Assembly: GCA_951406725.2 (NCBI GenBank) | Contig: OX597818.1 | Coordinates: 49,104,001 to 49,168,000, forward strand | Source: Octopus vulgaris | Lineage: Eukaryota | Direction: 5' to 3' | Length of the DNA: 64,000 bases | In this document: positions 2,109 to 59,765 of the stretch, piece after piece | How positions within the stretch are numbered: the stretch's first letter is position 1 | How the letters are laid out: every line of letters starts with the position of its first letter | Translations under genes and position numbers: made by a program | Notes under the pieces: generated by a model | Databases searched by the model: none | Told to the model about the DNA's origin: nothing | What the model saw: only the letters and a program-made list of their open reading frames with translations

Positions 2109-2395
2109 ATATATATATATATATATATATATATATATAAATGCTAAATTGAATTTTTTTCCTGTAAGTTAGGATTATCATTCCCTCAAATAATTATATA
2201 TATATATATATATAATAATAATAAATATTAGGGAATAAATCCAAATTTACAGGGGAAAAATCAGATTTAGGATTAAATCCAATTTTATAGTAAAATATTA
2301 TAAAATATTATTAGAGACAAAACCACTATTTTGCAAAACAAACAAGGAAAGACTTAATCAATACGTAAAATTTTAATAAATAGTCAAAAAAACCG

Positions 2396-2438
2396 CCACT
2401 ACAATTGTTTCTTGTCTTGATCGACAATCTTCAGGTGG
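2396..2438 (-). ncRNA. Minimal hammerhead ribozyme motif (mirror copy in palindrome)
   Basis: Exact reverse complement of 2485-2527. Confidence 0.85.
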
Positions 2439-2484
2439 ACTTCCAATAAGTCAGTTTCAAATTTGAAACTGACTTATTGGAAGT

Positions 2485-2527
2485 CCACCTGAAGATTGTC
2501 GATCAAGACAAGAAACAATTGTAGTGG
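2485..2527 (+). ncRNA. Minimal type-I hammerhead ribozyme motif, canonical core
   Basis: CCAC-CTGAAGA-TTGTC gatcaa GACAA-GAAA-C aatt G-TA|GTGG: stem I CCAC/GTGG, stem II 5 bp, palindromic stem III loop, predicted cleavage after 2523. Confidence 0.85.
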
Positions 2528-3039
2528 CGGTTTTTTTGACTATTTATTAAAATTTTACGTATTGATTAAGTCTTTCCTTGTTTGTTTTGCAAAATAGTGG
2601 TTTTGTCTCTAATAATATTTTATATATATATATATATATATATATATATATATACAGAGAATGAGCGAAAGAGAGAGATACATCCACACACACTCATGAA
2701 ATATTTGTTTCAGAATTGCATCTGTAATGTAAGAGAATCAGTGAACAAGTCATAGTTGAACAATGAAAGCCTTTGATACTTAATATAAACCACTATTAGA
2801 AAAGAAAACTTAAGTCACTGTAACAAGATATGAGTCTGTGTCTTTCATACACATAAACTTTACATGCAAACACACACTCACATTCATATAGTCTGTTAAT
2901 AGTCACATTTGCTTTATTTTATCATAATAGTATTTTATACTATCTATTATGTATCAAAGTCTTTTCATTGTCTAACACCTGGTCACTGACACTATCATTT
3001 ACTAAATTGGTACAAGTTTGTAAAAAAAGCAATATTTCC

Positions 3040-3449
3040 TTCTGGCAGAAACATTATAGCACACCAGGCGAAATGCGTAGCCTTTTTCGTCTGCCGTTAC
3101 GTTCTGAGTTCAAATTCCACCGAGGTCAACTTTGCCTTTCATCCTTTCGGGGTCGATAAATTAAGTACCAGTTACACACTGGGGTCGATATAATCGACTT
3201 AATCTGTTTGTCTGTCCTTGTTTGTCCTCTCTGTGTTTAGCCCCTTGTGGGTAGTAAAGAAATAGGTATTTCGTCTGCTGCTACGTTCTGAGTTCAAATT
3301 CTGCCTAGGTTGACTTTGCCTTTCATCCTTTCAGGGTCGATAAATTAAGTACCAGTTACACACTGGGGTCGATATAATCGACTTAATCTGTTTGTCTGTC
3401 CTTGTTTGTCCTCTCTGTGTTTAGCCCCTTGTGGATAGTAAAAAAATAG
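3040..3449 (+). mobile_element. SINE family B, head-to-tail dimer
   Basis: tRNA-like head (ctggcagaa...gagttcaaattcc), central gactttgcctttcatcctttcggggtcgataaattaagtaccag, second unit from ~3265. Confidence 0.85.
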
Positions 3450-4022
3450 ATATATTTGATGTTGAATAAACTTGAATTCAATGTAAATACCTAGTTTAAT
3501 CAAAATAAAGAAGATTGTAATTTTGAAGAAATCTGTTTCATTTTGACTACATACAGGGACAATTATATAAAGGAATTTAAAAATCTGGAATCCAAGGAAA
3601 TCTGGCAACAATTAATTAATGATAGAACTAATTATGTGTTGGAAACCCTTGCCTTGTGGATGGCAACTGTATTGAAATCAAATGAGCAAGGATTGTTGAG
3701 TAAATGGCCTGCTTCCTGAACTCCATTCGTTTGTCTTTCCTGACCATGAGTAGTCAGATATTTCAATTTAAAAACTTTGCCCTGTTATAATTTGTCCAGA
3801 GATTTCATAGATAATTTCAAGTGCCCACAGTTGTCCACAAGCCATGTGACACCGCTTTCTCATTCTCACTCTCAGATGGCGGTCAAGTGCTGTAATATTA
3901 AATTAATGCTGTATTATTATTCTTCACTCCTAACAGTGTCTTAAATTTAATGGGGTCTTCTATAAATTCTCTTATAAGAGAAATGTCTTATTAACATTTC
4001 AGCTCTGATATATAACTGTTAA

Positions 4023-4255
4023 AGGCGGCAAGCTGGCAGAAGTGTTAGCATGCCGGGCGAAATGCTTAGCCGTATTTCGTCTGCCATTGCGTTTTGAGTT
4101 CAAATTCCACTGAGGTCGATTTTGCCTTTCATCCTTTCGGGGTCGATAAATTAAGTACCAGTTACACACTAGGGTCGATATAATCGACTTAATCCATTTG
4201 TCTGTCCTTATTTGTCCCCTCTATGTTTAGCCCCTTGTGGGTAATAAAGAAACAG
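4023..4255 (+). mobile_element. SINE family B monomer
   Basis: ggcggcaagctggcagaa...gagttcaaattcc...gccccttgtgggtaataaagaaa. Confidence 0.88.
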
Positions 4256-4401
4256 AAACTGATATATAACTGGAACATACTTTATCAGTTGAGGGAATGA
4301 TGTCAGAAAAATTAATTTGATCTGCATATTAACCCTTTTGGTTCTCAACCCACATGAGACTGATCGCTTCAAGTAATATTCTAAACACCTGGTTCAATAA
4401 T

Positions 4402-56645: not shown

Positions 56646-57935
56646 GTACATACATATATATATATATATATATATATATATATATATATATATATATATA
56701 TATTGTGTGTGTGTGTGTGTGTGTGTGTGTATAAAAATATGTGTGTGTTTATGTTACTGTCCCCTTAACTTGCCTTTGGATGATAGTTGTAAGCAAGTGT
56801 CATTATCATGCACATAATGACCTTTGCTTTTAGTCTTCTGTGAAAACCTGTCTGGTTATGGGGAAATATCTTAACTTGGAAATAGGTGAAGGTTGTTGGT
56901 ATCTGACTGTAGAAAACCTTCTTTGACAGATTCTGTCCAAGCCATGCACGCATGGAAAAGTGGATGTTAAAATTAATGATGATGAAGTAGCTAGGCATCA
57001 CACTCATGACTGGTATCAAATAAGAGTATGCTTCTCCCTTGTGAATTTACAAATATGTGTGAATTACACACCTATATGATAATGCTTTGTCATTAACTCA
57101 CCTGAGTTCCTCTGCCCTATTACATGATCTGCTCACCTGTGACTAAACTTACTATCCCACCAAGCCTGAGGAGTGTCACTTTGGACACCCTACCGGATGA
57201 AACATATATACATATGTTTATTTATATTTATATTTGTTTCCACGCTAGTAAATTTTTGTGTGAATATGAGAAGCTGTAAATATATGAAAAGTTTTGAATT
57301 ATATTTTTTTAAGACGTAATGTCAGTTGCATTAGCTTAGTGAAACCTTATCATTTCCTTTTTACCAACTGATATAATATCTTGCGTATGCTCATGCGAGT
57401 GTAAAACTGGCTGTAGTAGAGTATATTATTATTAGATATCATCATGTTATTTTGTTGTCCAGCCAGATAGCTTTCACTGGAAAGAAAACATAAACATATA
57501 TATTATTTATTTTTTCTGTTGAAGGAGTGTAACTCCTGGAAAACATTTCACTTCCTCATTAAATTAAGCTTGAAAGAAGGTCATTGGTGTTTATTTTTAA
57601 CCTTATTTACAAGATTTAATATTACAAAATGCCATTTCTCTAGAATTTGAAAAGGTCACTGAAATTTATTGCAATGTTTTTAACTATTTCAAGGTAGTGA
57701 GTTGGTGGAATCAGCTCACTCGGTAAAATGCTTAGTGGCATTTTGTCTGTCTTTACATTCTGAGTTCAAATTCTGCCATGGTTGACTTTGCTTTTTATCA
57801 TTTTGGGATCGATAAAATAAGTACCAGTTAAGTACTGGGGTCGATGTAATCAACTAGCTCCCTCCTTCGAAATTGCTGGCCTTGTGCCAAAATTTGAAAC
57901 CAATATTTTTAACTATTAAAATATTTCTATTTTAA

Positions 57936-58157
57936 CCCTTTAGTGTTTAAACCGGCCATATCCGGCCCAAATATTCTATATGTTTTATATTCAAACTGGC
58001 AATATCTAGCCTTTCACACCTAACCTACAATGCCATTCTAAAAATAAACAATCACATCATTAAAACCTCAAAGCTATAAGATAATGCTTGATTAATTCAA
58101 AACAATTTGAATTAAAAAAAATATTACATTTAACAGTGTAATCTGAACACTAAAGGG
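57936..58157. mobile_element. piggyBac-like MITE, 222 bp
   Basis: TTAA|CCCTTTAGTGTT...AACACTAAAGGG|TTAA. Confidence 0.88.
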
Positions 58158-58338
58158 TTAAAGCCTTTTGATTTATCAGTGTATCATTTCTAAGAATAAT
58201 TTATTTCGAAAAGAGTCATAAAATCCACCGGTATGGCTGTGTGGTTAAGAAGCTTGCTTTGCAACCACATGGTTTCAGGTTCAGTCCTACTGTACAGCAC
58301 CTTAGATAAGTGTCTCTTCTGTTATAGCTCTGACTGTA

Positions 58339-58571
58339 CCTATTTCTTTACTACCCATAAGGGGCTAAACACAGAGGGGACAAACAAGGACAGACAAACG
58401 GATTAAGTCGATTACATCGACTCCAGTGCGTAACTGGTACTTAATTTATCGACCCCGAAAGGATGAAAGGCAAAGTCGACCTCGGCGGAATTTGAACTCA
58501 GAATGTAACGACAGACAGAATACCGCTAAGCATTTCGCCCGGTGTGCTAACGATTCTGCCAGCTCGCCGCC
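58339..58571 (-). mobile_element. SINE family B
   Basis: Near-consensus reverse copy. Confidence 0.9.
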
Positions 58572-58738
58572 TTGTACCACTGCCTTGTAAATGAAGTTCC
58601 TACTTACCAAAACACAGCAAATTATGAGGGCATTAAGTTGCAGTAAATTAATTAACTGATTACTAAATGCACAGTAATAAGACACGTAACATTTTCGTGA
58701 TATTTAAAACTTCTATTCAAAATTTTAAAAAAATATAT

Positions 58739-59135
58739 AGGTGCAGTAGTGGCTGTGTGGTAAGTAGCTTACTTCCCAATCACATGGTTCTGGGTTCAAT
58801 CCCATTGTATGACACCTTGGGCAAGTGTTTTCTACTATCACTTCAGGCTGACCAAAGTCTTGTGAGTGGATTTGATAGATGGAAACTGAAAGAAGCCTGT
58901 CGTATATATGTACGTGTGTGTGTATGTCTTTGTGCGTCTGTTTGTCCCCCTACTGTCGCTTGACAACTGATGTTGGTGTGTTTATGTCCCCATAACTTAG
59001 CAGTTCAGCAAAAGAGACTGATAGAATAAGTACTAGGCTTACAAAGAAAAAGTCCTGGGGTTGATTTGTTTGACTAAAGGCGGTGCTCCAACATGGCCAC
59101 AGTCCAATTACTGAAACAAGTAAAAGAATAAAAGA
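58739..59135 (+). mobile_element. SINE family A
   Basis: Consensus match. Confidence 0.88.
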
Positions 59136-59570
59136 CTACCTTTTATCTTTTACTTATTTCAGTCATTAGACTGTGGCCATGCTGTAGCACTGCTCTGAAG
59201 AATTTTAGTGAAATGCATTGACTCCACTTCTTATTTTTTTTTTTAGTACTTATTCTATCAATCTCTTTTGCTGACCTGCTAAGTTATGGGGATGTAAACA
59301 CACCAGCACCATATCTTAATACTTTTGTCATTCAGATTTTTTGTCAAATGCTAACACATCTATATTTACATTGATTTGAAATAACCATGCGTTAATCATC
59401 CATTATTGTTTAATTTCTATGATGCCATTCTAAAAATAAGCAATTGCTAATTTATAGAATGACATTATAGAGTATGAATGAGAAGCCAGATCCATCCGGT
59501 TTAAACATAAAACAGGTAAAATTTGAGCTAAATATGGCTGGTTTGAATGCCAAAGGGTTAAATACAGAAA

Positions 59571-59765
59571 GTTAATCCAAACAAGAAAACACAACAATGC
59601 GAGGACGTGGAACAAATATAGTATTATTGGATGCTCAGGAAAGAAGGGAAGAAAGAGGGTTTAACGTTTCGAGCAGAGCTCTTCATCGGAAACATGGGAG
59701 AAGGAAAGATCCAGAGAAGGGAAGACAGAGGAAAAAAATCGCCAACGGTACACACGCGGTCACTA
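59571..59765 (-). mobile_element. PLE-like hammerhead element (motif at 59659-59693)
   Basis: Minus strand GTTT-CCGATGA-A-GAGC tct GCTC-GAAA-CGTT-AAAC. Confidence 0.7.

Follow-up and report, generated by a model that had tools for sequence, protein, structure and literature searches.

Minimal hammerhead motifs in a 64-kb window of Octopus vulgaris DNA as probable 3' ends of truncated Penelope-like elements

Minimal type-I hammerhead ribozyme motifs recur in a stretch of Octopus vulgaris DNA (assembly GCA_951406725.2, contig OX597818.1, positions 49,104,001 to 49,168,000 of the forward strand), and the whole of this 64,000-nucleotide stretch, which is counted from its first letter, is referred to as the window. 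In total, 14 such motifs were found in 10 short insertions, and 3,025 of the 64,000 bases (about 4.7%) belong to hammerhead-bearing ends of this kind (Table 1). Our analysis suggests, with a probability of roughly four in five, that the motifs lie in dead, 5'-truncated 3' ends (pseudo-long terminal repeats, pLTRs, or 3' untranslated regions, UTRs) of several lineages of Penelope-like elements (PLEs). For one insertion the link to a published autonomous PLE can be drawn from its sequence directly, whereas for the six other families, termed A to F, the PLE masters and the mechanism of insertion are inferred.

A previous sequence-only reading of the window had placed hammerhead motifs at 13 sites, and all 13 do parse, intact or decayed, as the proposed layout of stem I, a 7-nt core, zero or one nucleotide, hairpin II, GAAA, a palindrome, N17 and stem I'. 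A strict descriptor (C3-G8 or U3-A8, U4 or C4, G5, A6 and A9, GAAA, UH, a stem II of at least 4 bp and a stem I of at least 3 Watson-Crick bp) matched six places of the window, each one of the 13 sites (A1 at 2434-, A2 at 2489+, E1 at 32926-, E2 at 33269+, E3 at 37056+ and B2 at 59689-), compared with an average of 0.1 over 20 local dinucleotide shuffles. With one deviation allowed there were nine matches versus 1.0 per shuffle. A broader descriptor permitting U6 and up to two lesions, which was tuned post hoc after the motifs had been seen, recovered 9 of the 13 versus 0.19 per shuffle (100 shuffles, maximum 3). The motifs are real and far above the shuffle expectation. Four of them (18875 in B1, 23643 in D, 34404 and 34464 in F) fail both descriptors and are remnants recognised only via homology to intact partners or by eye. 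Two matches of a relaxed descriptor, at 17089 and 59968, were rejected as they belong to no family, have no palindrome and lie within the shuffle background. A search of the whole window against Rfam (E<=5) gave 80 matches and no hammerhead family among them, its microRNA matches being microsatellite hairpins, and a search of the window with a profile of families B and C returned only their five known copies.

Table 1. Hammerhead-bearing insertions of the window, their motifs and one host element
Feature	Position	Strand	Remarks
Family A insertion	2215-2629		head-to-head inverted repeat, arms 2295-2461 / 2462-2629
Hammerhead A1	2396-2438	-	intact; predicted cut after 2400
Hammerhead A2	2485-2527	+	identical to A1; predicted cut after 2523
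Family B copy 1 (B1)	18776-18975	-	hammerhead 18875-18909 with four CpG lesions
Family C copy 1 (C1)	23147-23327	-	hammerhead 23228-23263, U at core position 6, U16.1C lesion
Family D inverted repeat	23487-23755		old; right arm with degenerate hammerhead, core at 23643
Family E inverted pair	32790-33469		around a microsatellite; hammerheads 32893-32929 (-), intact, and 33266-33302 (+)
Family F inverted pair	34321-34562		hammerheads 34403-34448 (-) and 34464-34506 (+)
Tc1/mariner host of family F	34280-35746	-	terminal inverted repeats; HTH_Tnp_Tc3_2 (PF01498) and DDE_3 (PF13358) remnants
Family E single copy (E3)	37044-37240	+	hammerhead 37053-37089, U3-A8 core
Family C copy 2 (C2)	52895-53063	+	first of same-strand tandem; hammerhead 52942-52977, U6, decayed
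Family C copy 3 (C3)	53118-53284	+	hammerhead 53161-53196, U6 at 53168, N17 at 53192
5'-truncated 3' end of Hydra-1_Obim	53301-53542	-	relaxed scan and by-eye comparison with published consensus
Family B copy 2 (B2)	59571-59765	-	hammerhead 59659-59693 intact, U4C core

The most direct evidence on the origin of the insertions comes from a 14th, decayed motif (core at 53378, minus strand) which the sequence-only reading had missed and which was found by a relaxed scan. Its stems and flanks are those of the hammerhead of Hydra-1_Obim, an element of Octopus bimaculoides, as listed in File S2 of Craig et al. 2021 (PMC8557442). From 53542 down to 53301 the minus strand follows the last ~240 nt of the Hydra-1_Obim consensus (PMC8557442); over ~245 nt the two differ by ~19 substitutions plus two small indels, a likeness of about 90% as compared by eye. 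The piece starts within the last ~10 codons of the open reading frame (ORF), one of which is now a stop (RKFLLQN, stop, KT, stop), continues through the 3' UTR and the hammerhead, and ends at a (TA)n run exactly where the consensus ends. To judge by this likeness, it is a direct link from a hammerhead piece to a published autonomous PLE, and the match implies that a short hammerhead-bearing element can be merely the 5'-truncated end of such an element. The earlier suggestion of a special non-autonomous population of PLEs or retrozymes is not supported, since the one identifiable piece is a truncated autonomous element and only one two-copy same-strand tandem was found in the window. The Hydra-1_Obim piece directly abuts that tandem, formed by family C, within one (TA)n run, so that a single microsatellite carries three insertions of PLE type.

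The architecture of the insertions points in the same direction. Minimal hammerhead ribozymes (min-HHRs) have been described in the pLTRs of PLEs, with ~2,000-9,000 per genome in many families, mostly single or closely inverted and derived from truncated PLEs (Cervera and de la Pena 2014, PMC4209133), and inverted 5'-truncated copies, partial tandems, one-sided tails of 30-40 bp and a bias to (TA)n targets have been reported for PLEs as well (PMC8557442). All these forms recur in the window, as had been claimed: the insertions of A, E and F are inverted with one-sided tails, D is inverted, family C forms a tandem (52895-53284), and single copies are also present. In detail, the two arms of family A are identical over all 167 aligned bases with their 3' ends pointing outward, and the insertion has (TA)n runs on both sides and an 80-nt tail on the left only. 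The family E pair carries a tail of ~60 nt on the right only, which recurs in the single copy E3, and family F a tail of ~23 nt on the left only. The window tails (23, 60 and 80 nt) thus bracket rather than match the 30-40 bp of PMC8557442. Both hammerheads of family F have a canonical core and are decayed, with the inversion joint truncating the one at 34464 within its stem I, and the whole insertion interrupts the Tc1/mariner element.

Of 15 hand-placed 3' ends, seven lie within 25 nt of a (TA)4+ run, compared with a background of 3.8% of positions. These seven all belong to families A, B and C and the Hydra-1 piece (7/8), as against 0/7 in D, E and F. Runs of (TA)n also surround C1 and the C2-C3 tandem, and B1 splits a SINE (short interspersed nuclear element, 18548-19232) at its inner (TA)n. 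SINE microsatellites like this one supply landing sites for TA-targeting PLEs. Flanking duplications were found in two of the ten insertions, TA-only repeats in four and none in four. The E pair is flanked by a 13-bp direct repeat (32790-32802 / 33457-33469), a length which 3 of 2000 random window pairs reach, and family F by a weaker 8-bp repeat (34321-34328 / 34555-34562; 44 of 2000). Similar tails and AT-rich targets are known from the Poseidon element PAc of Anolis, in which the one-sided tail comes from two start sites of the reverse transcriptase (RT) (Frangieh et al. 2024, PMC11167929).

It could be argued that the insertions are fold-back DNA transposons resembling miniature inverted-repeat transposable elements (MITEs), or chance hairpins in which the hammerhead is a product of pattern-seeking. 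The perfect palindrome of family A would suit this view, as would the lack of Rfam hammerheads and the four motifs that fail both descriptors. Against it stand the asymmetric tails, the long flanking duplications of differing length where a short target-site duplication (TSD) of fixed size would be expected, and a neighbouring motif identical with a published PLE hammerhead. Together with the shuffle counts and the N17 pattern of family C described below, they largely refute this explanation, which we consider very improbable.

The layouts also bear on the PLE lineages. A1 has an 8-nt palindromic stem III and no extra base after A9, which is the layout of the Hydra rows of File S2 (PMC8557442), and the (TA)n target is shared with Hydra-1_Obim. 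A and the Hydra-1 piece follow this layout, while in families B to F stem II carries G10.1-C11.1 and A9 is followed by an unpaired base. With these features and their palindrome, B, C, E and F resemble the metazoan min-HHR consensus of PMC4209133, and the motifs of the window share with the PLE min-HHRs described there a U-rich lead, a short stem I and NUH. The core CUGANGA...GAAA...NUH or its U3-A8 or U4C variant is present in 6 of the 13 motifs (A1, A2, B2 and E1-E3). The U3-A8 core is seen in the E pair as in E3, and the 7-nt core of family E is the same as one U3-A8 row listed in PMC4209133, where this variant has ~1,300 matches in Schistosoma; U4C is a known natural variant too (Perreault 2011). 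F, D and B1 carry the minimal core with decay, whereas family C departs from it at position 6. Family A is likely to belong to the Hydra clade, and the other families may be Neptune- or Poseidon-like. The claim that min-HHRs of the PLE kind sit in PLE-style insertions is supported by layouts, tails and inverted truncated copies alike. Six short motifs from families A, B, E and F had no matches in the supplement of PMC8557442, a search which did not cover C and D, and octopus is not named in supplement file 2 of PMC4209133.

The six families are not all unrelated: B and C as well as D and E share downstream sequence, which leaves about four lineages plus Hydra-1. Downstream of the motif, B1 aligns with C1 at a z score of 6.5 and with C3 at 4.4, and B2 with C3 at 2.6 and with C1 at 0.5, while the downstream flank of D aligns with that of E at 7.1. 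The flanks of A or Hydra-1 also weakly resemble those of B/C (z 2.6-9.1), which is probably due to shared T-rich and TA ends and was not counted as kinship.

The idea that stems and even core bases covary within families is not supported. Compared with the inferred ancestral state, a hand tally that omits D's stems I and III (ancestral state unknown) and the truncated stem I of F2 gives 20 fold-weakening changes within families, of which 15 are CpG transitions, five lie elsewhere and none is compensatory. Palindromic stems III are 4 or 8 nt long, and in the alignment of the five B and C sequences 97% of the cells pair versus 20-55% for slid partners. Only one of eight pairs changes on both sides, which 396 of 500 shuffles reach as well and which is not significant. 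Between relatives some changes do preserve the fold: the outer pair of stem I, G-C in B, is C-G in C, and in D a C3-G8 pair takes the place of the U3-A8 of E, the latter by a by-eye parse because MAFFT misplaces the motif when D is aligned with E. The motif of D has G12A and no pairing stem I. The changes within families are neutral decay, which explains why G12A, C11.1U and lesions of the palindrome recur. The apparent core difference between B1 and B2 is most plausibly explained by the same CpGs having decayed in opposite directions, and not by covariation.

This decay also bears on the possibility that the host has retained some copies as working cis-acting ribozymes, for instance in an intron. 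A1, A2, B2 and E1 are intact, and a weak, sub-threshold DOP1_C match hints at a host gene (a 74-aa frame at 3495-3716, plus strand, E 5e-4, 19.6 bits, below the cut-off of 27.3), and this frame may be a host exon. The uncompensated CpG decay in most copies, the occurrence of motifs on both strands and the folding of inverted pairs into hairpins make such retention the least probable of the explanations considered.

Family C was followed further in contigs of sequencing runs, with C3 as reference. The DNA runs X3, X5 and X9, from three organisms, gave 15,429, 11,927 and 5,568 contigs matching C3, and run X15, whose RNA nature is a guess, another 1,015; all depths are sums over contigs and not copy numbers. 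In the readable part of the reference, C11.1 is the majority state in all four runs, at 82, 81, 66 and 97% of depth; for G12-A15.1 and U16.1 no alternative is listed at 5%, and the CpG of the palindrome decays at 6-15%. At N17, U accounts for 5, 7, 44 and 11% and C for 1.5, 1.4, 10 and 1%, with no row for G at the 5% floor. The avoidance of G at N17, even though A to G is the transition, fits selection on the NUH rule in the master elements. The 3' loose ends of the family C contigs run into (TA)n. A single match of the family C pattern among metagenome contigs (L001) was rejected as chance, since it lies inside a bacterial coding frame resembling a biotin carboxyl carrier and has no similarity to the window.

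Several observations weigh against the reading as truncated PLE ends. No TSD was found on comparing the flanks of B2, D, E3 and the Hydra-1 piece, and the active dimer of five of the six motifs tested (B2, C1, C3, E1 and F1) lies far from the cofold minimum. Pfam found neither an RT nor a GIY-YIG domain in 300 of 568 frames (stop-to-stop, at least 45 aa, 150 near the motifs and 150 elsewhere; shorter frames and frames covered by SINEs or microsatellites were omitted), so that the masters of A to F could be non-autonomous. A link to a PLE ORF is given for the Hydra-1_Obim end by the published consensus, and none was found for A to F in these frames or in the loose ends of contigs. In addition, the contigs of family C almost never run beyond the element (share 0-0.01), and its 5' loose ends are pyrimidine tracts and not coding, which also fits a short non-autonomous unit.

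Some families, above all B and C, might be non-autonomous PLE derivatives or non-LTR retrozymes with fixed ends of their own, whose monomers and tandems would be copied by a PLE enzyme through a possibly circular RNA. Animal non-LTR retrozymes are also short, non-coding, PLE-linked hammerhead repeats (PMC7229834, bioRxiv 10.64898/2026.07.22.740005) and derive from PLE pLTRs (bioRxiv 10.64898/2026.07.22.740005). C2 and C3 stand in same-strand tandem 219 nt apart, and the great abundance of family C, its contigs' upstream stop and the matches from X15 would be in line with this. Yet this is one tandem among ten insertions, and consecutive units with complete hammerheads are not seen in it, as C2 has two lesions and both C2 and C3 carry U6. 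C1 and C2/C3 differ upstream of the motif as truncation would give, short-read contigs break at pyrimidine tracts, so that the upstream stop proves little, and the RNA label of X15 is, as mentioned, a guess. Moreover, animal retrozymes have been described with canonical hammerheads in multi-copy tandems (PMC7229834), unlike the window copies, which are mostly single or inverted and have minimal motifs. We regard this alternative as unlikely and favour truncated ends of PLEs.

In such an origin, an autonomous PLE located elsewhere, which for 53301-53542 would be the published Hydra-1_Obim, would be transcribed, and its RT and GIY-YIG protein would bind its RNA. The endonuclease would then nick AT-rich DNA or (TA)n and the RT would start near the RNA's 3' end at either of two sites, yielding copies that have a tail or lack one, as established for the Anolis PLE (PMC11167929). 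The window does show tails, TA ends and flanking duplications. Synthesis would stop after 150-250 nt or fold back, leaving the single, inverted and partial-tandem copies that are seen, and these keep the hammerhead because it is close to the 3' end. In the RNA of the master, by analogy with other PLEs (PMC4209133, PMC11167929), the hammerhead would cut as a palindrome-paired dimer, either slowly or with protein help: min-HHRs show no cleavage as monomers and low cleavage as dimers (PMC4209133), and the Poseidon PAc hammerhead cuts only with protein and is dispensable for insertion in vitro (PMC11167929). A double-hammerhead dimer is the predicted cofold minimum for family A only (-22.0 kcal/mol). 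The inserted copies decay neutrally, mainly at CpG, and the motif would be buried in the long hairpins expected from inverted pairs, the transcript of the family A locus being predicted to form a single hairpin of -265.7 kcal/mol. Given this decay and these hairpins, the loci of the window are probably not working ribozymes.

Family C is the one lead that merits a bench test. In all three of its copies, which stem from two independent insertions, core position 6 is U, a state absent from the passages and alignment rows of PMC4209133 that were compared. U6 is seen in these three window copies; the table of contig differences lists nothing to the left of 53184, even at 53176 where two of the three window copies differ from C3, and cannot read position 6, so that its silence there was not counted as support, and a depth peak over 53162-53173 is only a hint. 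Changes at A6 diminish activity. A natural A6C hammerhead of phage Bcep176 cuts at <0.1 per min and prefers Mn2+ (PMC3088659, PMC7151607), which is likewise a change at position 6 that leaves slow cleavage, while family C has A6U, belongs to a high-copy retroelement family and has a minimal dimeric fold. In a full mutagenesis study, activity was low when the CUGA turn carried a single mutation (PMC9901934). No natural A6U hammerhead was found in literature searches, which did not cover Lunse 2017 or supplement file 1 of Cervera, and either of these may already show one. That family C represents an undescribed, cleavage-competent natural A6U hammerhead of a PLE-linked lineage, in which a uridine-turn change that disables ordinary hammerheads became fixed, present at high copy in at least three related organisms and obeying the NUH rule, is a tentative proposal from sequence which we think doubtful.

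The remainder of the window is repeat-rich, non-coding animal DNA (GC 37.7%, with at least four self-matches over 22% of positions) with abundant SINEs, fragments whose frames look RTE- or L2-like by eye, and the Tc1/mariner element identified by Pfam. The stretch 33200-34700 is present in sequencing runs of five organisms, none of the listed runs being recorded as RNA. The SINE copies resemble octopus SINEs. Decayed LINE (long interspersed nuclear element) fragments lie at 901-1182, 6200-7591, 24323-24871 and 61291-61566, in part RTE-like with a weak Exo_endo_phos match and in part L2/Jockey-like 3' ends by eye, and the frame at 10466-10795 (minus strand) we take, by eye, to resemble the restriction-enzyme-like endonuclease end of an R2/R4-type LINE, for which Pfam gave no clear support. 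A young three-copy tandem at 17127-17772 (unit ~213 bp, 94-95% alike), which may be the core of a Helitron-like element, has no credible Rfam match, and an old inverted repeat of ~69% at 56188-56523, which ends at a TA/TAT run, has a PLE-like shape. No hammerhead was found in either, nor in the inverted repeat 58968-59311, formed by a SINE and its inverted piece. A 58-bp piece at 56296-56353 is repeated at 56588-56645.

As a whole, the finding matters little, since thousands of these motifs per animal genome, in many families and mainly from truncated PLEs, were already described in 2014, and the 2021 work included one from an octopus PLE: the motifs of the window are mostly ordinary members of the published PLE hammerheads, with U3-A8 and U4C cores that have been published as well. 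A literature search for hammerhead and octopus gave only Craig et al. 2021 as relevant, and the repeat annotation of O. vulgaris reports 31 recently active Penelope-like families without mention of hammerheads in its main text (PMC13282606). A hammerhead descriptor may help to classify short repeats of the octopus that might without it pass as unknown repeats, SINEs or MITEs. Family C, with U6, and its A6 sister family B form a natural pair for asking whether catalysis is needed. If the proposal for family C were true, it would be either a slow ribozyme assisted by protein or Mn2+, or a natural test of catalysis in PLE amplification in vivo.

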